The notes under the pieces were generated by a model. It saw only the letters and a list, made by a program, of their open reading frames with translations, made no database searches and was not told the origin of the DNA. This document shows positions 2,068-40,891 of a DNA stretch of 41,420 nucleotides, in pieces (position 1 is the first letter of the stretch; each line of letters starts with the position of its first letter). The DNA comes from Chlamydiales bacterium. Lineage in GTDB: Bacteria > Chlamydiota > Chlamydiia > Chlamydiales > SM23-39. The translations under genes were made by a program, and so were the position numbers. The stretch is from assembly GCA_036736085.1 (NCBI GenBank), contig DAINNB010000001.1, positions 1-41,420 of the forward strand, given 5' to 3'.

Positions 2068-3165
2068 ATGATCGTAAAAAACGAGAGTCCTGTTATTGAA
2101 CGTTGTTTAGCTTCTGTCAAACCCTACATCGATTATTGGGTCATTGTGGATACTGGATCTACAGATGGCACCCAAGAGATCATTAGGCGCTATCTGACAG
2201 ACGTTCCTGGCGAGCTCCATGAAAGGCCTTGGGTCGATTTTGCTCACAATCGGAATGAAGCTCTTGAGCTTGCAAAATCAAAAGCAGATTATCTTCTTTT
2301 TATTGACGCCGACCAAGTTCTTGAGTTTAGCCATTCCCCGGTTTTGCCTCCTTTGACTAAAGATTGTTATTTTGTCACTGTCCACTCTGATTTTAGATAT
2401 GCCGCCCAATATATTTTGTTTGTTCGGACGAGTCTTTCTATGTCTTGGCAGGGAGTTTTGCATGAAGGGCTCGTAAGCAATGCAGATAGCTACGGTGTAT
2501 TTACTGATATTAAAATTTCTGCCTTTTCTGATGGCAACCGATCCAGAGATCCCAGAAAATTTTATAAAGATGCTGATATCTTAGAAAAAGTTCTCCAAAA
2601 AGAACCTGACAACGCAAGGTATGTGATCTTTCTTGCTTTAACGTATGACGCAGCCTTAGAGCATAACTTGGCTCTCAAGTGGTTTGAGAAAAGATCTCAA
2701 ATGGGAGGAAGAGAGGAAGAAGTATTTTATTCCCTTCTCAAAATTGCTCACCTGCAAAGACATCTTCAATATCCTTCCGAAGTATTTATCGCCTCTTATG
2801 AAAAGGCGTATCAAAACCGTCCGACAAGGGCTGAACCCCTCTATTGGCTTGCAGACTACTACATTACCCAGAAAGACTTTGAGAAAGCTTACGCGCTCGC
2901 TCAAAAAGCGCTAACGATTCCTCTTCCTTTCACAGATCAAATTTATTTAGAATATGCTGTCTATGAGTATGAAATTCTTTTACAGATCGTCAAATGCGCT
3001 TATCAAACCAAAAGATATCAAGAAAGTTATCAAGCCCTTTTGCGCCTTCGATCTATTTCACAGCTGCCCGCACTCTCTCGATCTCAAGTAGAAGACATCT
3101 TGCCTCACGTAAGGGACATGTCCCTTTCTCTAGGAGTAACAGCAGTCTCTTCACCAGGCAGCTGA
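2068..3165 (+). CDS. family 2 glycosyltransferase with C-terminal TPR-like helical domain
   Basis: MIVKNESPVIERCLASVKPYIDYWVIVDTGSTDGTQEII...LLFIDADQVLE is a GT2 GT-A signature with a DAD motif. The C-terminal half is TPR-like (ALTYDAALEHNLALKWFEKR..., YYITQKDFEKAYALAQKAL). The track ORF starts at 1828 but would overlap the RHH gene. ATG 2068 or in-frame TTG 2017 are more plausible starts. Confidence 0.75.
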   Translation: MIVKNESPVIERCLASVKPYIDYWVIVDTGSTDGTQEIIRRYLTDVPGELHERPWVDFAHNRNEALELAKSKADYLLFIDADQVLEFSHSPVLPPLTKDCYFVTVHSDFRYAAQYILFVRTSLSMSWQGVLHEGLVSNADSYGVFTDIKISAFSDGNRSRDPRKFYKDADILEKVLQKEPDNARYVIFLALTYDAALEHNLALKWFEKRSQMGGREEEVFYSLLKIAHLQRHLQYPSEVFIASYEKAYQNRPTRAEPLYWLADYYITQKDFEKAYALAQKALTIPLPFTDQIYLEYAVYEYEILLQIVKCAYQTKRYQESYQALLRLRSISQLPALSRSQVEDILPHVRDMSLSLGVTAVSSPGS

Positions 3166-3368
3166 TTTTTATCGCTTGGAGAGGCTATTTTCTCAATTGC
3201 TTCCTCTGCTTTCTTGGAAAGCCACTCGTCTTCTAAATTTTTCATCATCTGAAACGCCGAAAGCAGCATGAACTTTCTCATGGAAATTCCAAGCTGTGCG
3301 CTGGCCATTTTTAGATAGGTATGTTCTTCTGGGGTCATATCGATCGTTAAACGCGCATAATGCTTCAT
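3105..3368 (-). CDS. ribbon-helix-helix domain protein (third paralogue)
   Basis: MKHYARLTIDMTPEEHTYLKMASAQLGISMRKFML carries the same motif. A strong AAGGAG lies 6-7 nt upstream of the ATG. Its 3' end overlaps the convergent GT2-TPR gene by 61 nt. Confidence 0.7.
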   Translation of the reverse strand: MKHYARLTIDMTPEEHTYLKMASAQLGISMRKFMLLSAFQMMKNLEDEWLSKKAEEAIEKIASPSDKNQLPGEETAVTPRERDMSLT

Positions 3369-3499
3369 ACAAGACTCCTTTGTTGTTCCGGTATACAGAA
3401 AAACAGAATTTATTTGCTATCGCAGTTTTTCAAATGTGTTTGATAATCAGAGTTTTGAGTATCTACTTATTTCAGTGAAGGATAGGCGTCATTGTTAGA

Positions 3500-3808
3500 G
3501 AAAGGGCTCCGCCCTTATACCCGCCAAAAGGGGCAAGCCCCCTCTGGACTCCATTTTATTTTTATATTTATAGGTAATTGCAAAAGTCGTTTTGATGGCC
3601 AAATTCGATGGTTTTTTCGTTGGCTAGGTTTTTCGCAAAGTGACATATCCTTTTGGCCATAGGCACTTTGCGAAAAATCCGAACCAACGGAAAAAGCGTG
3701 AATTTGGCACCGAGTGGACTTTTGCAATTACCTCTTTATACAAAAAAAACAAAAAGGGTTCTAAGGGAACTTGTTCCCTTAGCGGGTATAAGGGCAGAGC
3801 CCTTTCGC
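3500..3808. repeat. long palindromic MITE-like element, copy 1 (outer arms GAAAGGGCTC[C/T]GCCCTTATACCCGC; nested inner palindrome AGGTAATTGCAAAAGTC...GACTTTTGCAATTACCT)
   Basis: The left end and the reverse complement of the right end match. The interior is itself an imperfect palindrome (gccaaattc/gaatttggc, ttttcgttgg/ccaacggaaaa, tttttcgcaaagtg/cactttgcgaaaaa). It is homologous to 5598-5902 in the opposite orientation. Confidence 0.85.
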
Positions 3809-3815
3809 TGGCAGT

Positions 3816-4733
3816 ATGAACAAGATGGATAAAATAAAAACTTTTTCTAATTTTATAAATAAATATAAAGTAAGTTTTATGTCGTTTATTAAAAATCATT
3901 TTAAGAAAATTCATCTAAAAGAACAGTTAGGTCAAATTGATGGAATCGATGCGATTTATCTCATTAATTTAGATCAAAGGACTGAGAGAAGAGATCGGTG
4001 TCTTCAGCAGTTGCGGCCTTATGGGATTGTTCCTGAGAGGTTTTCTGCTATTTATGGATGGGAGATTTCTCAGGAGGCATTTGATGAGGTGGGGTTGAAA
4101 TTTCTTCCTCCGATGGGGTTTCTCTTTGACCGGCGCGTGTTTTTTCGTCCTTCAAGTCATCAAGATGTAGGAGAGCGTTTGAATGAATCTTCTTATGGGA
4201 GGACGTGCGTAAATATCTTTACGATTGCAGGAGCGATAGGTTGCGCATTAAGTCATTTATCTTGCCTTCAAGATGCTTTTGATGGTGGGGTGGAGACTGT
4301 TTGGATTTTAGAAGATGATTTAACAGTTTTTCAAAACCCCCGCTATTTGACCTATTTCATGGGAAAACTCGATCAGATTGTGGGCAAAGAGGGGTGGGAT
4401 CTTCTTTATACAGACAACCATCATATTTTTCCTCTTCGGGAAGGGAAGTATTTCCATGTTCGGCCTGATCGCCCTCCTATTCTTCACGCCTACGAAAACT
4501 TTTTAGTAGGAGATGACTTTATTCAAATTAACGGTCGAGCGGAACTACATTCGACCCTTTATCGGCGCTGTGGCATGAAGAAAATTTTAGAGTACTTTCA
4601 CCATTTCGGCATTTTTCATCCCATTGATATTGAGCTCTATAGTATTCCCGATCTTCGTATGTACAACCTAAGATCTGAGATTGTCGGGCATGGAGGATCC
4701 ACACAGTCCGACACAAGAGATCGAGCATTTTGA
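3816..4733 (+). CDS. family 25 glycosyltransferase (LPS/LOS beta-1,4-galactosyltransferase-like)
   Basis: IDAIYLINLDQRTERRDRCLQQL is the GT25 N-terminal signature, and WILEDD is a DXD-like motif. It is paralogous to 35575-36441. By comparison with that paralogue, the start may be a downstream ATG (3879). Confidence 0.8.
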   Translation: MNKMDKIKTFSNFINKYKVSFMSFIKNHFKKIHLKEQLGQIDGIDAIYLINLDQRTERRDRCLQQLRPYGIVPERFSAIYGWEISQEAFDEVGLKFLPPMGFLFDRRVFFRPSSHQDVGERLNESSYGRTCVNIFTIAGAIGCALSHLSCLQDAFDGGVETVWILEDDLTVFQNPRYLTYFMGKLDQIVGKEGWDLLYTDNHHIFPLREGKYFHVRPDRPPILHAYENFLVGDDFIQINGRAELHSTLYRRCGMKKILEYFHHFGIFHPIDIELYSIPDLRMYNLRSEIVGHGGSTQSDTRDRAF

Positions 4734-5596
4734 GGTTTTTGATGACAAACCGCTATGTAAGCTGCTCATTTATAGGACAGCTAGGCAATCAGTTATTTAT
4801 GATTGCTGCTACTTTAAGTTATGCCTGGGATCACCGTGCAATTGCTACTTTCCCTGGACTTCATGATAGCAATTATCGGCTATCTTACAATCGGGATCGA
4901 ATTTTTTTCCGCCTAAATACCTTCCAACCTCCAACTCCTTTGATCAAAGAGTTTGCCCACACCTACTGGTATCCTGTACACCGAATCCCTTACTGTGAAG
5001 ATAATCTCTTTCTTACCGGCTACTACCAATCATGGCACCATTTTCATCATCATAGAGAAAAACTACTCTCTCTCTTCGCCCCTCATCCAGATACATTAGA
5101 CTATCTATCTCAAAAATACAGAGACCTGCTTCACCATCCCTATACTGTAGCGATCCACGTTCGCACTTATTGCCTAAGAGACCATAAAGCGCTGCCTTTT
5201 TTAGGGTTAGATTATATAAAAGACAGCATAAAACTCTTTCCCGGCTCTCCTCAATTTGTCGTTTTTTCCGATCGGATCAATTTGTGCAAAAAACATTTTG
5301 AGCCGCTAGAAGGCAATTTCATTTTTATAGAAGGTAATGACGGCAACCAAGATTTAGCCTTGATGAGCCTCTGCAAACACAACATCATCGCAAATTCCAC
5401 ATTCTCCTGGTGGGCCGCCTACCTGAACCAACATGATCAAAAAAAAGTCGTCGCTCCAGCCCTTGTCTACCGTTCAGGCCCCACGCACCATTTCTACTGC
5501 CCCGAGTGGATACAAATCCCTGTCACCCTTCAACCCTATCCAGAAGATATGCGCGCTTATGATGAAGTCAGTCAGTCGTTTGATAATAACGACTAA
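4730..5596 (+). CDS. family 11 glycosyltransferase (alpha-1,2-fucosyltransferase-like)
   Basis: GQLGNQLF, HVRTY and NSTFSWWAAYLN match the GT11 motifs (GGLGNQ.FQ / HVRRGDY / NSTFSWWAAYL). TTG 4730 overlaps the upstream stop; ATG 4742 is an alternative start. Confidence 0.85.
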   Translation: MRFLMTNRYVSCSFIGQLGNQLFMIAATLSYAWDHRAIATFPGLHDSNYRLSYNRDRIFFRLNTFQPPTPLIKEFAHTYWYPVHRIPYCEDNLFLTGYYQSWHHFHHHREKLLSLFAPHPDTLDYLSQKYRDLLHHPYTVAIHVRTYCLRDHKALPFLGLDYIKDSIKLFPGSPQFVVFSDRINLCKKHFEPLEGNFIFIEGNDGNQDLALMSLCKHNIIANSTFSWWAAYLNQHDQKKVVAPALVYRSGPTHHFYCPEWIQIPVTLQPYPEDMRAYDEVSQSFDNND

Positions 5597-5597
5597 T

Positions 5598-5902
5598 GAA
5601 GGGCTTCGCCCTTAGACCCGCCAAGGGGACACGTCCACTTGGAACCCCTTTTGTTTTTTTATATATAAAGAGGTAATTGCAAAAGTTCATTCGGTGCCAA
5701 ATTCGGGCTTTTTCCGTTGCTTCGGATTTTTCGCGAAGTGCCTACGGCCAAAAGGATATGTCGCTTTGCGAAAAACCAAACCAACGAAAAAATCATCGAA
5801 TTTGGCCCTCGAAGCGACTTTTACAATTGCCTCTAAAAAGAAAAAAGGGAATCCAGAGGGGGCTTGCCCCCTTTGGCGGGTTTAAGGAAGGAGCTCTTTC
5901 GC
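5598..5902. repeat. long palindromic MITE-like element, copy 2 (inverted relative to copy 1)
   Basis: It aligns along its whole length with the reverse complement of 3500-3808, with most positions identical by eye. It starts 1 nt after the GT11 stop codon. Confidence 0.85.
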
Positions 5903-5937
5903 TGATAACATCGAAACTCTGTTTTTGAAATAATTTT

Positions 5938-6540
5938 CTAAGAAACTGATTCCCATTTTGTGGAATGGATTTGGAGTTCGGGGTGGGAAATGAGGAGGTG
6001 CCATAAAATGGCTTGGAAGCCTTCTGTGTGTGGCGTAATGGCTGAGCGATCTATTGTGGGAACTATGATGCAGGCGTCGGCTTGTTTAGCTGTATAACCT
6101 CCGTCTTTTCCTACGATTCCGATGATTTTGGCTTTTACGTTTTTAGCTGTTTTGATGGCCTCAACGAGGTTTGTTGAGATTTTTTTTTCTTCTGAGCCGC
6201 CGCCTACAGAGAAAATAAAAAGGCCGTCTTTTTCATTGAGTTTGCTTACAGTTAGGTAATTTGCTAGAGAGCTGTCCCAGCCGTCATCGTTGATTCGAGC
6301 TGTGAGCTCGGAGATATTGTCGAGGGGGCAGTAAGCTTCGAAACGTCCGAGTTTTCGAAAGTCGCAAGTAGCGTGGGAAGCATGGCCGGCTCCTCCTCCG
6401 GAGCCAATAAAAAAAAGGCGTCCTTGATCTTCTCGGATTTTTTTTAAGATCAGAGCGCATTTTTCAATCGATTCAAGATCGAGTTTATTGATGATCTGAG
6501 AAGTTTGTGCTAAAAATTGTTTTGCGAACATAGTGATCAA
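5938..6540 (-). CDS. gmhA: SIS-domain sedoheptulose-7-phosphate isomerase (GmhA-like)
   Basis: SIS pattern RLFFIGSGGGAGHASH...FIFSVGGGS...KIIGIVGKDGG, in an operon with gmhB, hddA and hddC. Confidence 0.7.
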   Translation of the reverse strand: MITMFAKQFLAQTSQIINKLDLESIEKCALILKKIREDQGRLFFIGSGGGAGHASHATCDFRKLGRFEAYCPLDNISELTARINDDGWDSSLANYLTVSKLNEKDGLFIFSVGGGSEEKKISTNLVEAIKTAKNVKAKIIGIVGKDGGYTAKQADACIIVPTIDRSAITPHTEGFQAILWHLLISHPELQIHSTKWESVS

Positions 6541-16937: not shown

Positions 16938-17962
16938 GCGTTGTTATTTTGGCTGGAGGAGAGGGCTCAAGGGTTTGGCCTTTATCAAGAAATGAGTTTC
17001 CGAAACAGTTTTTAAGTTTCGGAAATGAGCCTTCTCTTTTACAAAAAACCATCCTTCGCTTCACTGACAATCCCCTCGTCAAAAAAATCCTCATCTCAAC
17101 GAATACTCAATATGAGCATCTTGTCCATCGTCAAATTGAAAAACTCGGCGTCGAAGCTCTTTGCGACGTCCTGACAGAACCTCTCAAAAGAAACACAGCG
17201 CCAGCTATGGCCTATTGTGTAAAATATCTCGAAGACCTGCACCTGATCTCTCCTGAAGAAACAATTTTGGTCCTTCCCTCAGATCACGTCATCGAACCCA
17301 AAGAGGTCTTCCATCAGCACATAAAAAGCGCTCAACTTCAGGCCAGATCCAAAATCATCATTTTCGGAGTCAACGCTCAAAAACCAGAAACCGGCTATGG
17401 ATACATAGAAACTGGCTCTTCCCACGACTCTTCCACCTACAAAATCAAAAAATTCACTGAAAAACCCTCCCTAAAAGAAGCCGAGCATTATCTCTCCCAG
17501 GGAACCTACTACTGGAATTGCGGAATTTTTCTCTTCTCCCCTTCCATCTTCTGGCAAGAAATGAAACTCTACGCCCCAGAAATTAATCGCCTCTCCCAGC
17601 ACCCGTTTTCAAGCATCAAACACCACTACAGTGCTTTCCCAGATATCTCGATTGACTACGCCCTTCTCGAAAAAACTAGCGAATCCCTTCTCTGCCCCAT
17701 CTCTATCTCCTGGACCGATATAGGGTCTTGGGACAGCATCTACGAAGTACTAGATAAAGATGAGCACCAAAATGTCATCATCGGAGAGGCCGAACCTCTC
17801 GAAACCCAAAATAGCCTGATCATCAGCCATGGCAAAAAAAGGGTCTCCACCATCGGAGTCCAAAATCTCCTCATCATCGACACAGAAGACGTTCTTCTCA
17901 TCGTCCAAAAAGGCAACTCCCAAAAAGTCAAAAAATTATCCAAAAAATCTTCCCGTTCATAG
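16934..17962 (+). CDS. manC: mannose-1-phosphate guanylyltransferase (nucleotidyltransferase domain only, no isomerase/cupin domain)
   Basis: VILAGGEGSRVWPLSRNEFPKQFL, LPSDHVI, GYGYIE, YYWNCGIFLF and WTDIGSWD are typical ManC/CpsB motifs. Confidence 0.85.
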   Translation: MSVVILAGGEGSRVWPLSRNEFPKQFLSFGNEPSLLQKTILRFTDNPLVKKILISTNTQYEHLVHRQIEKLGVEALCDVLTEPLKRNTAPAMAYCVKYLEDLHLISPEETILVLPSDHVIEPKEVFHQHIKSAQLQARSKIIIFGVNAQKPETGYGYIETGSSHDSSTYKIKKFTEKPSLKEAEHYLSQGTYYWNCGIFLFSPSIFWQEMKLYAPEINRLSQHPFSSIKHHYSAFPDISIDYALLEKTSESLLCPISISWTDIGSWDSIYEVLDKDEHQNVIIGEAEPLETQNSLIISHGKKRVSTIGVQNLLIIDTEDVLLIVQKGNSQKVKKLSKKSSRS

Positions 17963-17968
17963 CGTAAG

Positions 17969-17985
17969 TAAGGGCTCCGCACTTA
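17969..17985. repeat. solo AAGGGC-N3-GC(A)CTT hairpin motif (degenerate arm of the palindromic repeat family)
   Basis: taagggctccgcactta sits exactly between the convergent stops of manC (17962) and the DMT gene (17986). Confidence 0.5.
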
Positions 17986-18885
17986 TTAGGCTTGGAGTTG
18001 TTCTTTTTTGGTGCAGCGGAGGATGTAGAGGTTGCTGGCTACGATGATGGCTGCGCCGAGGACGGTGTTGAGGTCTACGATTTTTTGCCACCAGAAGAAG
18101 TCGAGGGCTACGACCCAGAAGAAAGATGAGTAGTCGATGGGGGCCAGGAGTGAGGCTTGGGCGAAGCGGAGAGCTTGAGCGATGAGGTATTGTCCAAACG
18201 CGGTGATGGCTCCTACGAGGAGGAAGAGGGCCCAGTGGGTCCAGGGCATAGGGGTCCAGATAGTGAAGAGAAAGGGGAGGGTGAAGAGGATCATGGTGAG
18301 GTTGGGGTAGATGGCAATCGAGAGGCTGTGTTCCGTTTCGGCGAGGCGTCTCATGAGGATTTTGTTGAGCGAGCCTAGGAAGGCTCCAAGGAGGACGAGC
18401 AGAGCTGTCCATTCCATGACGCCGGAGCCTGGCCGCGTTGCGATGACGACGCCCAGCATGCCGAGGGCGACGGCTGCCCATCTATGCCAGGAGACCTTTT
18501 CTTTTAGCATAATGGCGCTAAGGAGGATCATGAAAAAGGGAGAGGTGTAAGAGAGGGTGTAGACCTCTGTCAAAGAGCCCATTGACATGGCTAGCATAAA
18601 AGAGCAGGTGTAGACGAGGTTTACTCCGAGCCGTACGGCATGTCTTGCGGGGTGAGAGGTGCTGAGGACTTTTTTTACGCCTCCTTGAAAGTAAACTGCG
18701 ACGAGGAGGGGGATGAGCCTTGTCAGCGCCCTTAGAATCATGGTTTGTTTGACGGCGTAGCTTGACATGAGATGCTTGAGGCAGGCGTCGGAAAGGGCGT
18801 AACAGATAAGAGCGAGACACATCGCGGAAACGCCCATAAAGGCTCGATCTTGAAGGCTTCTATTAGACTCTCTTGCTTGCGTCAT
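17986..18885 (-). CDS. EamA/DMT-superfamily transporter (10-TM type)
   Basis: 299 aa and highly hydrophobic, with two EamA-like halves. Its nucleotide composition and codon usage differ strikingly from its neighbours: GC-rich, with C-ending codons (CTC, ATC, GCC, GTC, ACC, TAC). Confidence 0.8.
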   Translation of the reverse strand: MTQARESNRSLQDRAFMGVSAMCLALICYALSDACLKHLMSSYAVKQTMILRALTRLIPLLVAVYFQGGVKKVLSTSHPARHAVRLGVNLVYTCSFMLAMSMGSLTEVYTLSYTSPFFMILLSAIMLKEKVSWHRWAAVALGMLGVVIATRPGSGVMEWTALLVLLGAFLGSLNKILMRRLAETEHSLSIAIYPNLTMILFTLPFLFTIWTPMPWTHWALFLLVGAITAFGQYLIAQALRFAQASLLAPIDYSSFFWVVALDFFWWQKIVDLNTVLGAAIIVASNLYILRCTKKEQLQA

Positions 18886-18932: not shown

Positions 18933-19745
18933 TTATAAAATCGGTTTTTTGGCTTTGATCAAAAGATGCCACCCAGCTTTTTTTTCAAGAACGTGGAAAA
19001 GCTTGAGAGGGAGGAGGTTCCAGGGAAATTTTTTTACATAATTTAATTTTTTATATTCTTTCAGACGATAAGGAAAGATGTGTGTTTTTTTGCATTCAAT
19101 GATTTCAAATTTTTCTAATAATTTAGTAATTTCTTTTTTCGAGAAAGTGACGGCGATCGGACATCCTGGCTGGGCTTCGGGTTGAGCCCTTTTTAGATAA
19201 ATTAAAAAATTTTTAATGCTATATTTAGCATAGAGCATGATCCTTAGCTCTCCTCCAGGCTTAAGGACCTTGAAACATTCATTGAGAGCCAACGTGGGAC
19301 GGGGAGTATGATGAAGGACGCCGAAGGAATAAACGAGATCAAATTGTTTGTTTGGAAAATAGGAAGCAAGTTCTTCCGCATTGCCTAAAATAAAATCGGC
19401 TTTAAGATTAAAAACCTTAAATCTTTTTTTTGTGATTGCGATATTATTTTCAGCTAGGTCCAAAGAGGTCAAGAGAGCTCCGGCTCTAGCGAAATTGATC
19501 GAATCGGTCCCTATTCCACAGCCTACTTCCAAAACATCCTTCCCCTTCCATCTTTCAAAGTCAGCAAATAAAGGGATATGAGGTTCTACGAAATATTTTC
19601 TTTTTTCGACCTCATTGAAATATTCTAAAGTTCCGATGGGAAAGTTACTGTGTTTTATATTACAAGGCTGTCTATTCCAATACTCTTTTACGTTGTGAAT
19701 TTGCATGCAATTTCGTTGATCTGTCTCATTACTGTATGAGCCCAT
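18933..19745 (-). CDS. class I SAM-dependent methyltransferase
   Basis: VLEVGCGIGTDSINFA (motif I) and LKPGGEL (post-II). The internal ATG at 19706 (MQIHNV...) is a likelier start because it shortens the overlap with the upstream gene. Confidence 0.8.
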   Translation of the reverse strand: MGSYSNETDQRNCMQIHNVKEYWNRQPCNIKHSNFPIGTLEYFNEVEKRKYFVEPHIPLFADFERWKGKDVLEVGCGIGTDSINFARAGALLTSLDLAENNIAITKKRFKVFNLKADFILGNAEELASYFPNKQFDLVYSFGVLHHTPRPTLALNECFKVLKPGGELRIMLYAKYSIKNFLIYLKRAQPEAQPGCPIAVTFSKKEITKLLEKFEIIECKKTHIFPYRLKEYKKLNYVKKFPWNLLPLKLFHVLEKKAGWHLLIKAKKPIL

Positions 19746-20704
19746 TCTTCTGGTAAAAATGGAGTTATTTGAGGACTTTTTAAAAACTTCTGAGCTTCGT
19801 TTAAATAATTTTGATATGTTTTTTTATCTATGCTTTTTAGAAATAAATAAAGTTCTTCGTCAGAAGAAAAATGATCGCGGCTGATGAAACAAGTGGACGG
19901 CACGTACTTGGTAATATCTGGAGCTCCCAGATAAATAGGAACGCATTGAGAATACATTGCCTGGAATAGTCTTTCCGTTGTAAATCCGCGGGCTTGAATA
20001 TTCTCGTAGGCGAGGGTAAATTTGTAATTTTTCAGGAGATTATTTTTTAGAAATACCGTTTCTTCTGTTCTTCCCGTTTTGTTCCAAGGACATGGGCCTA
20101 GCCTACCCCGCCAAGCTGGATATCCTTCCCAGCCTGCGCCAAATAGGTCGAACCCTTCTTTGCTTGAAAAATAACTGGCAGAAGCTCTTCTTGCGGGGGT
20201 TCCAGGATTAACTTGGGGATCGTTCGTTTGAATCATGACGCAAAATTTTTTATCCTCGAAGGCTGGGATGTTTCCGACGACTTTGTTTTCTGTAATGCGA
20301 TGGAAATATTTGAAGAATAACCGGTTATCGACCAAATCTTCGAATAGGATAAATATTTTCCCATAAAAATCTCCAAGCCGTCTGTCATACATCCATTGGC
20401 AATGCGTAGGAGGTTCTTGTACGAATAAAAAACATCGCTCTTTAGGAACTTTGGAGTAAGCGAGGCCTTCGAGGAGCCTTGAATTAAGTAGACAGGTACT
20501 AAACACGCACATGGCGTTTTTCAGATCAAAGCTATTGTTAGTTACTTTGAATTCATATCCTGCCTTTTCTACAGCTTCTCTGATGCGCATGTAAGGGACG
20601 GCAACCCCGTCTGGCAAAGCAAAGCGATCATAGTAGTAATTTTTTTCAGCCATGTCCACGACTAGCGCGTAGACGACATTTTTTTTATTAGGATCATCAC
20701 TCAT
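19688..20704 (-). CDS. family 10 glycosyltransferase (alpha-1,3/4-fucosyltransferase-like)
   Basis: KKFCVMIQTN...FDLFGAGW...YKFTLAYENIQARGFTTERLFQAMYSQCVPIYLGAPD matches the GT10 core motif F.L.FEN....DY.TEK......g.VPVy.G. Confidence 0.85.
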   Translation of the reverse strand: MSDDPNKKNVVYALVVDMAEKNYYYDRFALPDGVAVPYMRIREAVEKAGYEFKVTNNSFDLKNAMCVFSTCLLNSRLLEGLAYSKVPKERCFLFVQEPPTHCQWMYDRRLGDFYGKIFILFEDLVDNRLFFKYFHRITENKVVGNIPAFEDKKFCVMIQTNDPQVNPGTPARRASASYFSSKEGFDLFGAGWEGYPAWRGRLGPCPWNKTGRTEETVFLKNNLLKNYKFTLAYENIQARGFTTERLFQAMYSQCVPIYLGAPDITKYVPSTCFISRDHFSSDEELYLFLKSIDKKTYQNYLNEAQKFLKSPQITPFLPEEWAHTVMRQINEIACKFTT

Positions 20705-23422: not shown

Positions 23423-24394
23423 ATGATTAGAAAAGATCCTGCGAAAAAAACTGTCTATGTTTTGTTGGAAGATTGCGGAAATCATGATATTTTCTTCGAT
23501 CGCTCCTCAAGAAAAGACGATTACGCTGTTCCCTATGTGTATCTTAGAGAAGCTATAGAAAATCTGGGGTATAATTTTGTTCCGACTTTTGACTACAAAG
23601 GGTTAGGATCTTATGACGATGTCGCCTACATCATTTCCATTACACTATTGAATCAAGATATCCTGGATAGTTTATCAAAACATCCTAAAGAAAAATGTTT
23701 TTTATTTGTTAACGAGCCTTATACGACTTACGGTCTGTTTTATGACAAGAGATTGAGACATTATTTTGGAAAAATCTTTGTCATGTTTGAGGAGTTTGTA
23801 GACAATCAATCTTATTTTAGTTATTTACACGCGCAATGTAATGAAAAATTCGCAGAAAATGTTCCCGAATTTGAAGATAAAAAATTTTGCGTCATGGTTC
23901 AATCGAACCATTTTTGTCCGCATCCGAAATCGATGTATGAAGAGAGAAGAAAGGCTGCCCGGTTTTTTTCCTCTGTCGGAGACTTTGATTTATATGGAGC
24001 TCGTTGGAATGATTTCTCGTGTTGGAAGGGAGCTTTTAAAACAGGCAAATTGGACGTCATTAAAAATTATAAATTTTGCCTCAGCTACGAAAATATCCAC
24101 GATCAATGCGGATACATAACGGAAAGAATTTTCGATGCCTTTTATGCTAGCTGCATTCCAATTTATTTAGGGCCTAAAAACATCTATGATTACATACCCA
24201 AAAATTGCTTTATTAACTTAACTGAATTCTCCTCTTACAACGATCTTTATCAATTTATGAATAGCATAGACAAAGAAACTTATCATTCTTATCTCAGCGC
24301 TGCCAAGGAATTCATTGCCAGCCCTGAGGCTTCGGTGTTTTCTAGCAGGCATCTTGCCAAAACGGTGCTGCAGCATCTAAACCCACCTGTTTAA
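23423..24394 (+). CDS. family 10 glycosyltransferase (alpha-1,3/4-fucosyltransferase-like), paralogue 2
   Basis: KKFCVMVQSN...FDLYGARW...YKFCLSYENIHDQCGYITERIFDAFYASCIPIYLGPKN. Confidence 0.85.
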   Translation: MIRKDPAKKTVYVLLEDCGNHDIFFDRSSRKDDYAVPYVYLREAIENLGYNFVPTFDYKGLGSYDDVAYIISITLLNQDILDSLSKHPKEKCFLFVNEPYTTYGLFYDKRLRHYFGKIFVMFEEFVDNQSYFSYLHAQCNEKFAENVPEFEDKKFCVMVQSNHFCPHPKSMYEERRKAARFFSSVGDFDLYGARWNDFSCWKGAFKTGKLDVIKNYKFCLSYENIHDQCGYITERIFDAFYASCIPIYLGPKNIYDYIPKNCFINLTEFSSYNDLYQFMNSIDKETYHSYLSAAKEFIASPEASVFSSRHLAKTVLQHLNPPV

Positions 24395-24408: not shown

Positions 24409-25031
24409 ATGACCCTCATGTTCTCTATGCTTTATTATCTCCGGAAAAACTTTTTGCCTCGAGAATCTACTATTGCAGTTGTCGGGGCCAATTGGGGCTC
24501 TCACGTTATCGAGATTAGCAAACTTTGGCCTCAAAGCACTCTCTACGCTTTCGAGCCTAATCCGAGGGTCTATCCGGCCTCAATGAAAATCTCTCTAAAG
24601 AGTCCCTCTATAACTCAATAAAAACCTACCAGCTAGCCCTCGGTGGAACAAACGGCATGCTAAATTTCTATGTAGACTTGCAAGATACAAGCTGCATCAG
24701 CTTTCTCTACACCCCCGCGGAAAAAAAGAAATTCTTCGAAACTCCCATCAAAGTCCCCGTCTTAACTTTAGACAAATGGGCTGAACTGCAAAATGTCTCC
24801 CACATCGATTTTCTCTACCTCGATATGCAAGGCGCGGAAGGAGACATGCTTAAAGCAAGCCCCACTCTCTTAAAAACCGTAAAAGTCATCGAACTGGAAT
24901 TCTATACCTACCCCGTCTACGAAGGAATCATGTTCCGCGACGAAATCAAAACGTTCCTCGAAGACGCCGGCTTCAAAACACTCTACCTAGAACCAGAAGA
25001 AAACGGCGAAGCCATTTTCGTCAGAAAATAA
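24409..25031 (+). pseudogene. FkbM-family methyltransferase split by a frameshift near 24564
   Basis: ORF 24409-24621 gives VVGANWGSHV...YAFEPNPRV. The expected continuation GLSGLNENLSKESLYNSIKTYQLALGGTNGMLNFY... is read in the next frame from about 24564 and joins ORF 24657-25031 (IDFLYLDMQGAEGDML). Confidence 0.7.
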
Positions 25032-25042
25032 ATACCCTTAGC

Positions 25043-25170
25043 AAAAGGGCTCTGCCCTTAGACCCGCAAACGGGATACGTCCCCTTAGGACCCCATTTTT
25101 TTATATAAGAAACAAAAGGGGTTCTAAGGGGGCGTGTTCCGTTTGCGGGTCTAAGGGCGGAGCCCTTTTC
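25043..25170. repeat. short (arms-only) member of the palindromic repeat family; likely bidirectional terminator
   Basis: aaaagggctctgcccttagacccgcaaacgggatacgtccccttaggacccc, an AT-rich loop, then ggggttctaagggggcgtgttccgtttgcgggtctaagggcggagcccttttc. It lacks the inner AGGTAATTGCAAAAG palindrome. It fills the gap between convergent genes and abuts the stop at 25171. Confidence 0.8.
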
Positions 25171-26067
25171 TTAGTTCCACCAGGCTGGATCGCAGGATTG
25201 GGAGTTTTCGTCGTAGCTGTACATATCTTCAGGATAGGGGGCGAAGACGTAAGGTACTCCTATCCAATCAGGGAGGTAGAGGTTTTCTTGGGGATTGGGA
25301 TAGGGGTGGCCTCCTGAGTGCCATTTGTCCGGGACGATCACTTTTTTATTGGGGTTTTGGTTAAGGTAGGCTCCCCACCAGGAGAAAGTCGAGTTGCAGA
25401 TGATGTTGTGTTTGCATTTTGACATGAGGAAGAGATCTTCTATGCCGTAGTTTCCGTCTACGAAAAGGAAGTTTTTGTCGGGGAATTTTTCTTTGAAATG
25501 TTTTTTACACCAATTAATCCTATCGGAGAAGAGGACAAATAGAGAATCGCTGGAGAAGTGCTGCATCGCTTTTTCATAGTACTCGAATCCTAAGAAAGGC
25601 TGCTGGTTGGTGTTATGAAATCGGATGCCAGAGGTTCTGGCGTGAATGCTTACTGTATTGGGATTTTCTAAGAGATCTTTGTATTTTGCGTGCAGGATAT
25701 TTAACGTCTGCTCTGATGGATCAAGAGTTTCTAGCAACCGGGATCGATGATGATGAAAATGTCTCCAGCTTTGAAAATAACCGTCTAAAATGACATCTTT
25801 TAGATAAGGGATTCTTTCTGGACAATAGGCGTCTTTTTCCCGGAAGATGGTGGAAAAATTTCTTGGGGGCTGAGACGTGTCGAGTCGGAAAAATAGGCGG
25901 TCTTTATTGTAAGACGTCCTGTTTTTTTTCGTATGAAGCCCAGGAAATATAGGGGTCATGTCATAATCCCAAGCGTACGCTAATGTCGCCGCTGTGATGA
26001 ATAGCTGGTTTCCTATCTGTCCATAAAATTGACATGTAACTAAAGGTTTTGAGTATTTGTCTGTCAT
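25171..26067 (-). CDS. family 11 glycosyltransferase (alpha-1,2-fucosyltransferase-like), paralogue 2
   Basis: GQIGNQLFITAATLAYAWDY, HARTS and NSTFSWWGAYLN. The C-terminus PYPEDMYSYDENSQ is shared with the other GT11 copies. Confidence 0.85.
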   Translation of the reverse strand: MTDKYSKPLVTCQFYGQIGNQLFITAATLAYAWDYDMTPIFPGLHTKKNRTSYNKDRLFFRLDTSQPPRNFSTIFREKDAYCPERIPYLKDVILDGYFQSWRHFHHHRSRLLETLDPSEQTLNILHAKYKDLLENPNTVSIHARTSGIRFHNTNQQPFLGFEYYEKAMQHFSSDSLFVLFSDRINWCKKHFKEKFPDKNFLFVDGNYGIEDLFLMSKCKHNIICNSTFSWWGAYLNQNPNKKVIVPDKWHSGGHPYPNPQENLYLPDWIGVPYVFAPYPEDMYSYDENSQSCDPAWWN

Positions 26068-30296: not shown

Positions 30297-31190
30297 ATGC
30301 AAAATACATCCAAAATCGTTTGGCTTCTTTACGGCAACGGAGTGCCATCGTGGTATGCTTGTACGCCGATTCCAAGCGATCCTATTCAATCGAAATCTTT
30401 GGGCCCGAGGCTGTTTGAAGAGATTCAAAAAGCAGGTTTTACTATTCACTTCACGCAAGACGCAAGCGAAATCCGTGGAGACATGTTCGCTCTTATTTCC
30501 TGGGATGCTGCAGCTCCCATTTTGCAAAATCTTGCTCCTTATTCTAAAGAAAATAGAGATAGATGTTTTTTGCTCGCTTTTGAGCCTCCTATGATTTGTC
30601 CTGCGTACTATAGCGAAGAGACGAAAAAAAGGTTTGGAAAGATTTTCGTCTGGTTCGATGATCTCGTCGATAACGTCAATTTCTATAAAATCCACTGTCC
30701 GTTTAATTTATGGGGCCTCGGAATGGCGAAAGATCTGCCCCCTTTTTCAGAAAAAAAACTCTGCTGTCTCATGAATGGAAATAAACAGTGGGGCAACGAC
30801 CCGAACGAGCTGAATTCAGAAAGAGTTCGGGCGATTCAGGCTTTGACCCCAACCGGCGATTTCGATCTTTACGGCTCTGGATGGCATGGAATTCCCAGTT
30901 GGAAGGGAGTCGCTCCCGCAGACGCCTCTTCCGTTTTCAAACAGTATAAATTTTCGATCCGCTACGAAAATTACGGAAACCGGCCAGGCTATGTCGGCGA
31001 TAAAATTTTCCCAGCTCTTCTAGGAAGGACGGTTCCGGTCTATTTAGGAGCGACAAACATAGAAGAATACGTTCCCAAAGAGTGTTTTGTCGATAAAAGG
31101 GAGTTTTCTTCTTATGAAGATCTTTACTGGTTCATGAAAAGTATGGACGAAAAAACGCATGAAGAGAACTTGGCGGCAGGACTTGCATAA
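30297..31190 (+). CDS. family 10 glycosyltransferase (fucosyltransferase-like), paralogue 3, C-terminally truncated by nonsense codons
   Basis: KKLCCLMNGN...FDLYGSGW...YKFSIRYENYGNRPGYVGDKIFPALLGRTVPVYLGATN. The frame continues with paralogue-like sequence through TAA 31188 and TAA 31203, up to TAA 31272. Confidence 0.8.
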   Translation: MQNTSKIVWLLYGNGVPSWYACTPIPSDPIQSKSLGPRLFEEIQKAGFTIHFTQDASEIRGDMFALISWDAAAPILQNLAPYSKENRDRCFLLAFEPPMICPAYYSEETKKRFGKIFVWFDDLVDNVNFYKIHCPFNLWGLGMAKDLPPFSEKKLCCLMNGNKQWGNDPNELNSERVRAIQALTPTGDFDLYGSGWHGIPSWKGVAPADASSVFKQYKFSIRYENYGNRPGYVGDKIFPALLGRTVPVYLGATNIEEYVPKECFVDKREFSSYEDLYWFMKSMDEKTHEENLAAGLA

Positions 31191-35574: not shown

Positions 35575-36441
35575 ATGAAAGATACAATTTCAAAGCATTT
35601 TAGGTTGATACAAGATAAACACATTTCTTCTAAATTTCAGATTAGAAATGTAGATTTTATTTATTTAATTAATTTGGATAGAAGAACAGACCGGCTTCAA
35701 CGATGTTTTCGACAGCTTTCTCCTTACCAGATTAGGCCTCATCGTGCTCCTGGGATTGATGGCTGGAGTTTATCTCAAGAGGTATTTGATGATATTGCGA
35801 TGATCGTCGAGCCATCGATGCGGTATGATCGAAATGTACAGGTGAGCTTTGTTCCTGGGAATTCTCCTGGGAAACCATTTCGAGATCTTGTAGCAGGACA
35901 AAGGTGTTTGCATAAAGATGCGCCTGGCGGAGGAATGGGGGGGTGTTTGACCCATCTTTCCATCTTGGAGGATGCGTATATGTCCGGTTTTGAAACGGTA
36001 TGGATTTTGGAAGATGATTTTACCGCAAAAGGAAATCCCCATGAACTTGCCGATCTAATAGACCGTCTGGATAAGTTAGAGAGCGGCTGGGATGTTCTTT
36101 ATACAGATGATGATTGCTACTATACACCATCTAACGTTAGAGCTCACTGCGGAAGTGACGGGTGGCTAAGACCTGGAATGCCGATGACACCTTCTTTAAT
36201 TGAAAGAAAAGCTGTGGGAGAAGACTTTTTCAAGATCGGAGGCCGTACTCAGGCCCACTCTTATCTTGTCCGCAGGTCTGGGATGGAAAAGATTTTACGC
36301 TTCGTGAAGGAAAATTGTCTTTTTTTCCCTTTTGATACAGAGCTTCCTACCATTGAAGGGCTTTGCCTTTATAATTTAAAATACGATCTCATCCATGGAA
36401 GAGATCGGTCTTACTCCGATACGTATGTTAAACAGCCTTAA
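35575..36441 (+). CDS. family 25 glycosyltransferase, paralogue 2
   Basis: VDFIYLINLDRRTDRLQRCFRQL and WILEDD. Confidence 0.8.
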   Translation: MKDTISKHFRLIQDKHISSKFQIRNVDFIYLINLDRRTDRLQRCFRQLSPYQIRPHRAPGIDGWSLSQEVFDDIAMIVEPSMRYDRNVQVSFVPGNSPGKPFRDLVAGQRCLHKDAPGGGMGGCLTHLSILEDAYMSGFETVWILEDDFTAKGNPHELADLIDRLDKLESGWDVLYTDDDCYYTPSNVRAHCGSDGWLRPGMPMTPSLIERKAVGEDFFKIGGRTQAHSYLVRRSGMEKILRFVKENCLFFPFDTELPTIEGLCLYNLKYDLIHGRDRSYSDTYVKQP

Positions 36442-36587
36442 AGAGGTCTGTGCAGAATTCAGGGGATTTTAAAAAAAACAGGTATTTGTTTTTTATTAAT
36501 TGAGCGATGTAATTAAAATTTTATTTGCTGACATTTGATTTTTAGTTCTTTTGCTTTTATTATCTATTTGAGTAATAGTGTAATTTG

Positions 36588-37358
36588 ATGTTTTACGAGC
36601 ATTTCATTGCTATTAATTATTCTAGTGAGAATTTTGAAAATAAAATAAATTCTGAAAAATAAAGTTTTTCTTCCGATCAAGAAAGCAGAGTGAGTTCTGC
36701 TTTTTCTAATGCAGATATATTAGAGGCTCAAGATCCAAGTAAACGTAAACGAGAAGAGCCTATTTCTCCAGTTGTTGCATCCTAGAGTAAAAGACAAAAA
36801 ATAGATTCTTCTCCTTTAGAGAAAACGAATGAGGTAGCTCAAGCCTATTTTTCAGCATCTTCCTCTTCTGAAGGTTCGTCGCAAAAAAAAGATGAGCTAA
36901 TTGGCTCCTTGTAAAATATTCATTGGAAGTTTGACGCAAGAGATTCAACCTTAAGCGTTATTCGTTTTTATGAAAGAAGTTTTGAATCAAATTATCGTTA
37001 TGGTACTGGTAAAATGATCTTTCTAGCCGGGACCGTATATGAAGGACGATTCAGTGAAGGAGTTGATCGCGGCCTTGGTAGGTTGACTAGCGCCAACGGG
37101 GATGTTTATGAAGGGGAGTTTATACCGTTCGTAACTTAAGAATCGGCTATTAGGCTGGTTCAAACCGCCAAAAATTGATCGCTGCAAAGTGGGGTAGTAT
37201 CGCTCGATACAACCTACTTTGCAGTGATCGATTTTTGGCAGCTTTCAATCCCGTCTAATAACCGATTCTTGATTCACGAACGGTATAAAAACGGATTGCC
37301 TTATTATGCAAATGAGGATGACTTTTTAAACATACCAAAATACTCGCCAGCCGCATAA
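36588..37358 (+). pseudogene. decayed MORN-repeat protein gene (three in-frame stops plus MITE insertion)
   Basis: A single frame from ATG 36588 is interrupted by TAA 36660, TAG 36783 and TAA 36912. The distal part reads YRYGTGKMIFLAGTVYEGRFSEGVDRGLGRLTSANGDVYEGEF / KNGLPYY, which is the MORN pattern Y.G.f..G...G.G. Confidence 0.6.
37123..37285. mobile_element. 163-bp palindromic MITE with TA target-site duplication (Tc1/mariner-IS630-type signature)
   Basis: The termini TACCGTTCGT...ACGAACGGTA are perfect inverted repeats, and the whole element is an imperfect palindrome. It is flanked by TA (37121-22) and TA (37286-87). It is unrelated to the AAGGGC repeat family. Confidence 0.75.
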
Positions 37359-37400
37359 TTTACTTAAATAAAGTACCTTTAATGGCGCTTGATATAATAA

Positions 37401-37442
37401 AAAATAATTAAAAAAGGTTTCCAAAGGACGATAGTCTTTTGG
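37401..37442 (-). terminator. putative rho-independent terminator (second copy of the repeated 3'-end module)
   Basis: On the minus strand: ccaaaagac-tatc-gtcctttgg, followed by aaaccttttttaatt. It lies downstream of the GT11 stop at 37497 and is homologous to 943-985. Confidence 0.45.
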
Positions 37443-37496
37443 TTGGTTCTTAAGGGCGAAGCTCTTAAAAAAGAGCTGTTAACTTCACAGGCACTC

Positions 37497-38372
37497 TTAA
37501 TCGTTATTATCGATACACTGTGAGACTTTGTCGTAATCGTAGACGTCATCTGGCAACGGTTGAATGGGTCCGCAGTCCATTAACGTCCACTCGGGCAGGA
37601 AGAAATCTTCTGCTCGGGGGTTGATTTGCAGAGCGGGGTTTTTCCAAAGCCGTGGGAGGAGCACTTTTTTATCTGGATTTTGATTGAAATAAGCGGCCCA
37701 CCAAGAAAAAGAAGAGTTGCAGAGGATATTGTGTTTGCATTTTGCAAGTAAAAATAGATCTTCTATGGCGTAGTTATCCTCTACGAAAATGAAATTTCTA
37801 GGGATAGAAGAGAAGTGTTTTTTACACCAGTTGATTCGGTCTGAAGTAATGACAAATAGAGAGTCTTCAGGGAACTGATCGATGCATCTTTGATAATAGT
37901 CCATGCCCCAGAAGGGGTGATTCCCATTGTTATGTGTTCTTCGGCATTGTGTTCTTACGTGAACGCCTACTGTTTTAGGATGTTCTAGAACGTCTTTATA
38001 TTTTACTTGTAAATAGTGAAGAGTGAAATCTGAAGGGGCGAATACTTGTAGGAGTTTTTCTTGGTGATGATGAAAACGTTTCCAAGACTGGAGATAGCCA
38101 TTGAGTACGAGGTCGTTTTGAAAAGGGATTTTTTCTGCACCGTACCAGCTTGATTCTTCAAAAATATGTGCAGGGGGCCTTGGAAGCATTGATGAGTTTA
38201 ATCTAAAAAACATCCGATCTTTGTTATAAGAGATATTCCAAGCTTTTTGATGCAGGGCTGGAAAGTAGGCGTCTGCACCATAGTCCCAAGCGTAAGCTAA
38301 GGTAGTGGCTATTTGGAAAAATTGATTTCCAAGCTGGCCGTAAATTTGGCAAGAGACAAAGGGCTTTTGCAC
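37497..38372 (-). CDS. family 11 glycosyltransferase (alpha-1,2-fucosyltransferase-like), paralogue 3
   Basis: GQLGNQFFQIATTLAYAWDY, HVRTQC and NSSFSWWAAYFN. GTG start. Confidence 0.85.
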   Translation of the reverse strand: MQKPFVSCQIYGQLGNQFFQIATTLAYAWDYGADAYFPALHQKAWNISYNKDRMFFRLNSSMLPRPPAHIFEESSWYGAEKIPFQNDLVLNGYLQSWKRFHHHQEKLLQVFAPSDFTLHYLQVKYKDVLEHPKTVGVHVRTQCRRTHNNGNHPFWGMDYYQRCIDQFPEDSLFVITSDRINWCKKHFSSIPRNFIFVEDNYAIEDLFLLAKCKHNILCNSSFSWWAAYFNQNPDKKVLLPRLWKNPALQINPRAEDFFLPEWTLMDCGPIQPLPDDVYDYDKVSQCIDNND

Positions 38373-39919: not shown

Positions 39920-40891
39920 TTAAATACCTAGTTTTTTCACTTGATCAATAATTGTATTTACCATGTTTTCTAAAGAGAATAACTTTATTTTTTGATTGTT
40001 GGTTAGATAATTTTGTCCTGCGGAGATGTAATTTTGATAGGTAGATTTATCCATGGATGTCATAAAATCCCAAATCCTTTTCTGGGCAGCTTCTCCTTGA
40101 CCGCCAAAGTCTCTAGCGTCAATAAAACAGTCTTTTGGGACGTAATCGTGGATATTGGGAGCTCCTAAATAAACAGGAACATTTCTAGCAAATAGAGAAT
40201 TGAAAATTCTTTCAGTGATAAATCCAAGCTCATCTCCTGTATTTTCATAGCAAATAGCAAATTTGTATTGTCCAAGCAGAGCTTTATTGGTTTTAGTCAT
40301 CCCTTTCCAGCTTTTTAATCCTTGCCAATTGACTCCATAGACATCGAATTCTTTTGAAAATGAAGAGAGCTGAGTAAAAAATTCTGCTAAATTTTTTCTC
40401 TCTGTATACAATTCTCCAGGGAAATGGCGGAAAAATTTGTTTCCTTGAACCATGCAGCAGAGTTTTCTTTTTTCAAAAGGAACTTCTTGTTCTTGAGATA
40501 TTGGATTTTTTTGAGTAATTAAATGATAGATTTTAAAATAGTTCTGATTGTCTACGAATCTATCTAAAAGCAAAAATATTTTGCCAAACCTTGATCTAGT
40601 AACTGGAGAATAAAAGCTCGGCATAACCAAAGGAGGCTCTGTTGCGATGAGAAAGCAGCGCTCTCTTGGATATTGAGCTAGCTGCTGAATTCTTGTTTCA
40701 TCTAAATCTGCAGAGATGAGAACAGAAAAATCGCCTAAATGACCAGCATCATTGCTATTTCTTACGGTGTATCCAAGACTTTGCAAAGCTTGCTTTAAAG
40801 CTGTCCCTAAACCTTCGTGCGGAGAGGGAACTAAATTCCCTATTTGTTCTTCTAAATTAAGAAGCCAAGCAACTTTAGAATTTATGGTCAT
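39920..40891 (-). CDS. family 10 glycosyltransferase (fucosyltransferase-like), paralogue 4
   Basis: RKLCCMVQGN...FDVYGVNW...YKFAICYENTGDELGFITERIFNSLFARNVPVYLGAPN. Confidence 0.85.
   Translation of the reverse strand: MTINSKVAWLLNLEEQIGNLVPSPHEGLGTALKQALQSLGYTVRNSNDAGHLGDFSVLISADLDETRIQQLAQYPRERCFLIATEPPLVMPSFYSPVTRSRFGKIFLLLDRFVDNQNYFKIYHLITQKNPISQEQEVPFEKRKLCCMVQGNKFFRHFPGELYTERKNLAEFFTQLSSFSKEFDVYGVNWQGLKSWKGMTKTNKALLGQYKFAICYENTGDELGFITERIFNSLFARNVPVYLGAPNIHDYVPKDCFIDARDFGGQGEAAQKRIWDFMTSMDKSTYQNYISAGQNYLTNNQKIKLFSLENMVNTIIDQVKKLGI

Follow-up and report, generated by a model that had tools for sequence, protein, structure and literature searches.

In the 41,420-nt contig of an environmental Chlamydiales metagenome-assembled genome (MAG), which was analysed as a whole and is called the window below, a two-gene operon of glycosyltransferase families GT25 and GT11 is framed by two palindromic elements of about 305 bp in inverted orientation. 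Each of these elements combines two unrelated repeat families, namely an inner 164-bp miniature inverted-repeat transposable element (MITE) and an outer hairpin doublet in whose loop the MITE is nested. We consider it probable that these nested, non-autonomous repeats were copied as a composite and that the operon beside them is ancestral, fixed and does not flip. On this reading the MITE would have inserted once into the AT-rich loop of the palindromic doublet, and the composite would then have been copied as a unit via its outer ends, leaving one copy in each of the two gaps that flank GT25-GT11. The repeats would have come later than the operon, which would already have been fixed within its glycan-synthesis cluster, and the tight framing would follow from a compact genome in which repeats occupy most of the available intergenic space.

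Copy 1 of the composite (3497-3810, plus strand, arm A to arm B) lies in the divergent intergenic region between a ParD-like antitoxin gene and GT25. Copy 2 (5596-5908, minus strand), which reads arm B to arm A on the plus strand and is inverted with respect to copy 1, nearly fills the convergent intergenic region between GT11 and a SIS-domain gene. As reverse complements, the copies can be aligned from end to end, with 86% identity over 309 nt by BLAST and 83% in a global alignment, and a repeat search returned three collinear inverted blocks spanning 3492-3809 and 5599-5908 that are gapless and 83-89% complementary. The same-strand alignment of the two copies gives an identity of just ~73-75%, therefore the inverted orientation is real even though each copy is palindromic in itself. 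Folded as single-stranded DNA, copy 1 reaches -94.6 kcal/mol (z = -14.8) and copy 2 reaches -76.4 kcal/mol (z = -8.3). The original prediction of two inverted palindromic elements of this size is thus confirmed by the full-length alignment, the strong folds and the lower same-strand identity. In copy 1, the outer arm of type A (3502-3562, plus strand; nhmmer E = 4e-18, with hairpin covariation) consists of a first hairpin (AAGGGCTCCGCCCTT), the linker ATACCCGC, a second hairpin and a T-run. It is followed by a TTTA target-site duplication (3567-3570), the inner MITE (3571-3734, plus strand) with the terminal inverted repeats TAGGTAATTGCAAAAGTC and GACTTTTGCAATTACCTC, the second TTTA (3735-3738), and the outer arm of type B (3746-3804, minus strand), which lies toward the cassette. 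The A8 run at 3742-3749 in the doublet loop of this copy is A7 in the assembly L042, a strain polymorphism of homopolymer length. In copy 2 the order is mirrored, with arm B (5599-5658, plus strand) toward the cassette, the MITE (5670-5833, minus strand) between TAAA flanks at 5666-5669 and 5834-5837, and arm A (5839-5898, minus strand), so that the B arms point at the GT25-GT11 cassette on both sides. Both copies have the same TTTA duplication, the same position in the AT-rich loop and the same orientation of the MITE relative to the A and B arms. From this agreement we infer that the MITE was nested once and that the composite was copied afterwards; the direction of the copying and its neutrality are inferences as well.

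The inner element has terminal inverted repeats of 18 nt (GAGGNAATTGCAAAASTC) at both ends, not only in the two window copies but also at three loci of other genomes (L051, L052 and L053), where the copies are each exactly 164 bp long and no outer arms are present nearby. Its 4-bp target duplication is TTTA in both window copies (TAAA on the plus strand for copy 2), TGAA in L051, CTTT in L052 and TGAA in L053. An internally deleted derivative of 46 bp with a TTTA duplication was found in L032. The window copies are 89.6% identical to each other after taking the reverse complement, and copy 1 is 77-87% identical to the independent copies in L051-L053. A spurious 83-aa open reading frame (ORF) read from copy 2 was used as the bait for this family. 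In an exhaustive HMMER search of 1.84 billion representatives, 19 other cluster representatives carried an element-derived peptide, with flanks unrelated to each other and the outer-arm peptide in none, and a profile search gave 27 matches. A metagenome scan with the inner-element pattern returned only two contigs, which are the orthologous copy 1 and copy 2 sites in sister strains. The element is non-coding, as its stop codons vary between copies. It is a true MITE by every feature that was tested, and in its size, 18-nt terminal repeats, 4-bp duplication, non-coding nature, dispersal and the existence of a deletion derivative it is like the classical bacterial MITEs. It differs from them in being palindromic almost throughout its length, beyond its ends, and also in that its parent insertion sequence was not found, either in plasmids or as an inner terminal repeat beside a transposase-sized ORF in 53 loci. 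A MITE origin had been proposed for the elements; the terminal repeats and the target duplication uphold this for the inner part, and the three functional readings offered beside it are not borne out. It may also be noted that these repeats are a source of annotation artefacts. ORFs that start inside the MITE run into real genes (L051 1867-2607 and L053 694-1692, annotated as 'T2SS-J/DUF1494' and 'amidohydrolase'), and an 83-aa 'gene' is called inside copy 2 (5677-5928) in GCA_003448855.1.

The outer element is a doublet of about 128 bp with two arms of about 60 nt, each with two small conserved hairpins, and its ends are sharp (AAGGGCTCCGCCCTTA...TAAGGGCGGAGCCCTT). The terminus of the family reads AAGGGCNNNGCCCTTANACCCGC, and the 23-nt terminus has five matches in the window against 0 expected by chance. 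The third family member in the window is a bare doublet with B and B' arms and no inner MITE (25045-25167, 123 nt; RNA fold of -111 kcal/mol, z = -17), which fills the gap where a truncated FkbM methyltransferase ORF and a GT11 paralogue (25171-26067) converge. This truncated ORF (24657-25031, 124 aa) matches only the C-terminal half of its domain. On scanning one genome per species for the outer terminus, the same short doublet was found in BP7.bin23 (13 loci), ZJ1.bin9 and Chlamydiae clean417, all three of them related MAGs. These hold at least 15 further doublets and solo arms, with identical sharp ends within unrelated flanks. The copies occur as doublets, as solo arms and as neighbours of other repeat modules, and they occupy convergent, divergent and tandem intergenic regions, often at 0-30 nt from gene ends. 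The arms fall into the two types A and B. A covariation analysis of 34 arms, in which 89% of the cells pair and both sides change in 8 of 16 pairs, gave a score that was reached in 0 of 500 shuffles; the arm hairpins have hence been kept by compensatory changes. No direct repeat was found in the flanks of 16 full copies, and the inner MITE was present in none of about 25 other doublets examined. An all-against-all BLASTP of the ORFs of 40 loci for a transposase shared near outer copies returned housekeeping synteny only; also, no RAYT (Y1 transposase) gene lies within the window, and no protein is common to the element-bearing loci.

REPINs, or doublets of repetitive extragenic palindromic (REP) elements, consist of inverted short palindromic units and a spacer (Bertels & Rainey 2011, PMC3116915; PMC3337134). 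The outer family is similar to these in that two inverted palindromic units and a spacer give one long hairpin of ~100-130 nt, in its extragenic location, in its occurrence as singlets, doublets and mosaics with other repeats, in having no target-site duplication, and in its many copies per genome in the related MAGs. A GTAG or CGTC head defines the two REP superfamilies (PMC3733652), and the outer family lacks it, its arms beginning with AAGGGC after variable bases. It also differs in its arm, which has about 60 nt and two hairpins as against one REP of 20-40 nt, and in its host lineage, the Chlamydiales. From its sequence features the outer element thus resembles a REPIN, and we do not file it as one because it has no GTAG/CGTC head and the RAYT search was limited to the window. 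In size and habit it is also like the 127-bp ERIC/IRU palindromes of enterobacteria and the Correia elements of Neisseria. The latter two are imperfect palindromes of ~100-150 bp, transcribed or intergenic and close to genes, of which longer variants hold internal insertions and shorter ones are deletion derivatives, and which can affect mRNA stability, termination and promoters. The outer element has no sequence similarity to either, and Correia elements have a TA duplication.

A core of 23 nt in the outer arm (AAGGGC-NNN-GCCCTT-A-N-ACCCGC) was further seen in about 20 Bacillota/Clostridia loci, in two TM6 loci (L005 and L012) and in single loci of other phyla (L002-L041). It is far commoner than the ~4 matches expected by chance, and a second hairpin comes after it in every case. 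Arrays of units made of the hairpin and ACCC(C)GC are seen in Ruminococcus MAGs. For the most part these loci have neither a doublet partner nor a neighbouring gene in common. The window also holds a second, unrelated palindromic family at 37119-37289 (~171 nt, DNA fold z = -9.7) inside a gap of 1055 nt (36442-37496). Copies of this family are present in BP7.bin23 (L011 5755-5929, L017 6097-6238, L038 5608-5750 and L016 4483-4625), in L017 it abuts an outer doublet, and a stretch related to it sits in the ParD-GT25 spacer of L045. The motif AAGTTGACAGCATT recurs beside doublets, which points to a mosaic organisation like that of bacterial interspersed mosaic elements.

In the operon, GT25 (plus strand, product of 284 aa) is encoded at 3879-4733, and the longest ORF begins at 3816. 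All GT25 homologues have 284 aa, with a first residue that corresponds to M22 of the window, the relatives have in-frame stops just upstream of the conserved start, and in the 21 extra codons of the longer ORF 3 of 3 sister-strain substitutions are non-synonymous. The extension is therefore not conserved and the start is the ATG at 3879. Copy 1 had been placed 7 nt before the GT25 start; it ends 68-74 nt upstream of the true one, with an AT-rich segment of 68 nt in between. The sole nearby promoter-like match, by consensus only, is CTGGCA-16-TAAAAT at 3808-3835, overlapping the last bases of copy 1 and extending into this segment. As this match sits at the element edge and 68 nt of AT-rich DNA follow, the GT25 mRNA need not include the element, and the proposal that the element forms the whole 5′ leader of that gene is doubtful. 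GT11, of the alpha-1,2-fucosyltransferase family, starts with ATG and encodes 284 aa (4742-5596, plus strand). Its C-terminus is native (...DNND*) and the same in relatives. Copy 2 does adjoin this gene as predicted, its canonical end (AAGGGC, 5599) lying 2 nt past the stop codon (5594-5596). The best-matching named homologues are from 'Chlamydiales bacterium', and no exact-protein database match was found for GT25 (in its 305-aa model) or GT11.

The same junctions between elements and genes are found in five independent assemblies, namely the window, L001 (a contig of a MAG with 99.8% identity) and L042, L043 and L050 (contigs of three other assemblies with 97-99% identity), in a single orientation; these are assemblies and not reads. 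Among more distant relatives, the order ParD (minus strand), GT25, GT11 and, further on, SIS (minus strand) is common to L044 and L045-47, and the short contigs L048 and L049, which span part of this locus, have the same order and orientation. In L044 (GT25 identity 72%) the ParD-GT25 spacer has 226 nt and no element, and a DUF4258 gene pair is inserted downstream of GT11. L045-47 (73%) have a spacer of 423 nt with a different repeat, and downstream a different palindrome of ~130 nt. In L048 (81%) the spacer of ~197 nt holds only a degenerate remnant of arm A, with an alignment score reached by 2 of 500 shuffles, and the contig ends within GT11. In L049 (75%) neither recovered flank has an element. 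Of the upstream spacer only the ~110 nt beside ParD are kept among the window, L048, L044 and L045, and the remainder turns over. The relatives thus keep a syntenic GT25-GT11 pair without the composite, so the cassette is older than the elements at this site. The inserts at the GT11/SIS junction, which are the toxin-antitoxin-like DUF4258 gene pair of L044 (11803-12554) and the unrelated palindrome of L045 (6512-6731), mark this junction as a hotspot of insertion turnover.

Two readings in which the pair of elements acts on the genes between them have to be weighed against this picture. According to one, the elements mobilised GT25-GT11 as cargo, or could do so, in the manner of Tn10, and it takes its appeal from the same mobile-derived repeat being present twice, inverted around the genes and with the same arm inward. 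The cassette without flanking elements at the same site in relatives, which had been named as one half of the refuting evidence, is what we found in L044, L048 and L049, and in L045-47 the site has other fillers. The upstream and downstream neighbours are conserved as well, the whole unit has no duplication around it (its flanks are ...TTGTTAGAG| and |CGCTGATAAC), and the GC content of the cassette is unremarkable and gives no signal of horizontal transfer. The prediction of a composite, MITE-bounded mobile cassette is refuted by these observations, and we give it practically no credence. In contrast to Tn10 and Tn5, with which the locus shares two inverted mobile-derived copies around cargo genes, the cargo is ancestral in element-free relatives, the unit lacks a duplication and the flanking elements have no transposase. 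According to the other reading, homologous recombination between the copies would turn the segment 3811-5595 around and cut GT25-GT11 off from its promoter, so that a fucosylated surface glycan would become phase-variable. The geometry would suit this, with inverted repeats of ~300 bp and 83-86% identity lying 1.8 kb apart around exactly one operon, and these glycosyltransferase gene families are phase-variable in other bacteria, where repeat tracts underlie the variation of lgt, lic2A and futC. Against it stand the single orientation in all five assemblies and the unchanged orientation of the genes in element-free relatives. When every ORF of 100 aa or more in the 41-kb contig was scanned against Pfam, no recombinase, integrase or transposase came up. 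The copies share no identical run longer than 23 nt, which is marginal for RecA-dependent exchange (at or below the minimum of ~23-27 bp reported for efficient RecA recombination in E. coli), and their divergence of 10-18% speaks against ongoing exchange or gene conversion between them. Also, the likely promoter between copy 1 and the start codon would flip together with the genes. Inversion, which the original prediction had offered next to mobility, is therefore unsupported and in our view highly improbable. Known invertons such as fimS, hin and the Bacteroides capsule loci combine short inverted repeats (tens of bp) with a site-specific recombinase encoded next to them, and usually flip a promoter; the locus is like them in that inverted repeats flank a segment of a surface-glycan locus, and differs in that the repeats have 305 bp and are diverged, the contig is free of recombinases, whole genes lie between the repeats and one orientation is seen. 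As for phase variation by simple sequences, the runs found are limited to A/T tracts of 8-9 nt, which are ordinary for the composition, and there are no notable tandem repeats.

The remaining alternatives concern how the composites arose and whether they do anything. A bare doublet could have been present in each flank first, with each loop hit separately by the inner MITE later. The inner family does favour AT-rich 4-bp targets (TTTA, TGAA, CTTT), with TTTA again in L032, and inner copies of other genomes are nearly as close to copy 1 as copy 2 is. Such a history would have to produce the same duplication, loop position and orientation in both flanks, in a family where about 25 other doublets lack the MITE, and the arm types match better across the copies (A1-A2 85%, B1-B2 82%) than within them (77%). 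Two independent nestings are thus very unlikely. It is possible, if on the doubtful side, that the composites and the bare doublet at 25045 have been exapted as bidirectional barriers, insulators or RNA-processing sites that isolate GT25-GT11 from its neighbours, and have been retained on that account; a selfish origin would not conflict with this. Two of them, copy 2 and the bare doublet, nearly fill their convergent junctions, the predicted hairpins are extremely stable and those of the arms are maintained by compensatory changes. But the arms are not canonical intrinsic terminators, as the T-run begins 6 nt past the stem of the second hairpin, and a terminator scan gave 1-2 weak sites, a number not above that for shuffled sequence. 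The family is present in divergent and tandem gaps too, at 5′ ends as often as at 3′ ends, and in L044 the convergent genes are 1 nt apart with no palindrome. The inner-stem substitutions between the copies are not compensatory and copy 2 folds ~18 kcal/mol worse, which together fit neutral decay. The elements might conceivably affect transcription, e.g. if the long hairpin served as a barrier between convergent operons or was cut there by RNase III. We think it unlikely that the outer doublet belongs to an undescribed, cross-phylum class of mobile DNA that is built from hairpin modules, moves with no target duplication and lacks the REP head; if it were true, the duplicated composite would show that at least 164 bp of foreign cargo can be carried during copying, and the two elements around GT25-GT11 might also be a rare recombination substrate or a transcriptional insulator for a fucosylated-glycan operon.

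Several points weigh against the reading of nested repeats copied as a composite beside a fixed operon. No transposase able to move the inner or the outer family was identified in the 41-kb window and the loci compared, and the outer family has no target duplication that would point to a copying mechanism. Inner MITEs in other genomes are up to 86.6% identical to copy 1 as against 89.6% for copy 2; a single nesting is therefore unproven by identity alone, and it is the shared duplication, position and orientation that carry the argument. The count of composites covers the 41-kb contig, and other composites in the genome would weaken the case for local copying. A palindromic repeat is present in 3 of 3 convergent gaps of the window (the third being of the 37119-37289 family), and L045-47 hold their unrelated ~130-nt palindrome at the same GT11/SIS junction. 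Palindromes at all convergent gaps could reflect selection for function in place of neutral insertion. Only 9 of the 41 gaps in the window have at least 100 nt, and the distribution fits selfish repeats in the few permissive gaps of a compact gene cluster.

Other identities of the elements were tried and rejected. The ORFs inside them (3515-3727, minus strand; 3624-3914, minus strand; 5677-5928, plus strand) are not kept between the copies, and no matches were found that would indicate a phage, plasmid or viral origin of the repeats. Consensus scans for an intrinsic terminator or promoter inside the elements were no richer than in shuffled sequence. The window has no Rfam family at gathering score, and permissive thresholds gave only miRNA-like hairpin noise and a sub-threshold match to Clostridiales-2 RNA (RF02937), with 26.1 bits for the best arm match as against the gathering threshold of 58.6 bits. 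An attC site is defined by R''/R' core sites (RYYYAAC ... GTTRRRY) together with an integron integrase or an attC array; the ends of the element are AAGGGC...GCCCTT with no GTTRRRY core, and no integrase was found.

The contig as a whole is a single large glycan-synthesis cluster without tRNAs. It encodes a GT2-TPR gene, 2 GT25, 3 GT11 and 4 GT10 fucosyltransferase-family genes, besides FkbM and C-methyltransferases, GDP-mannose/GDP-sugar enzymes and UDP-sugar enzymes. The paralogues include GT10 at 19688-20704, 23423-24394, 30297-31190 and 39920-40891, GT11 at 25171-26067 and 37497-38372, and GT25 at 35575-36441. The glycosyltransferase paralogues are just 37-52% identical, therefore their duplications are old. 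This gene set is suited to fucosylated glycans like the Lewis or H antigens and is uncommon for a Chlamydiales genome. The left neighbour of the locus is the ParD-like antitoxin gene (3105-3368, minus strand), the ~110 nt upstream of which (3369-3480) are kept in all relatives, and the right neighbour is the SIS-domain (sugar isomerase) gene (5938-6540, minus strand), the last gene of a long minus-strand sugar-nucleotide operon. Two ParD-like antitoxin ORFs (1383-1712 and 3105-3368) have no evident adjoining toxin, and their positions are kept in L044 and L045. The EamA-family transporter gene (17957-18885) has a local GC peak of 0.52 as against ~0.41 for the contig, with strong swings in GC skew, and may be of foreign origin. 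Within the operon, GT11 (4742-5596) differs by ~4.6% from L043 and L050, mostly at third codon positions, as compared to ~1% or less for GT25, copy 2 and SIS. By this pattern it looks like an imported allele, with putative breakpoints near 4733-4753 and 5563-5619, the right one at the edge of copy 2. In GT25, the window differs from L001, L042 and L050 by 4 clustered substitutions at 4284-4322. The version of the sister strains equals that of the 81% relative, thus the window carries the derived cluster, and gene conversion from the GT25 paralogue (35992-36023) was rejected as its source since the sister variant looks ancestral.

No published description of MITEs or REPINs in Chlamydiae was found, and the terminal sequences were found in no paper, so the 164-bp MITE and the REPIN-like doublet without target duplication are apparently two undescribed small repeat families of environmental Chlamydiales. 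For annotation, the repeats yield spurious ORFs and false N-terminal extensions, as in the 305-aa call of GT25 and the extended calls in other MAGs. The tempting reading of a mobile or phase-variable glycosyltransferase cassette is removed. What the locus documents is a clear case of nesting in which the composite itself was probably copied, among otherwise ordinary repeats in intergenic space, and a copied composite would indicate, if indirectly, that the doublet is able to take cargo along when it is copied. The outer hairpin module, with a 23-nt core that is also present in MAGs of Bacillota and TM6, is the main lead. If its hairpins do act as barriers between convergent operons, this would bear on how operons are insulated in the compact genomes of intracellular bacteria.

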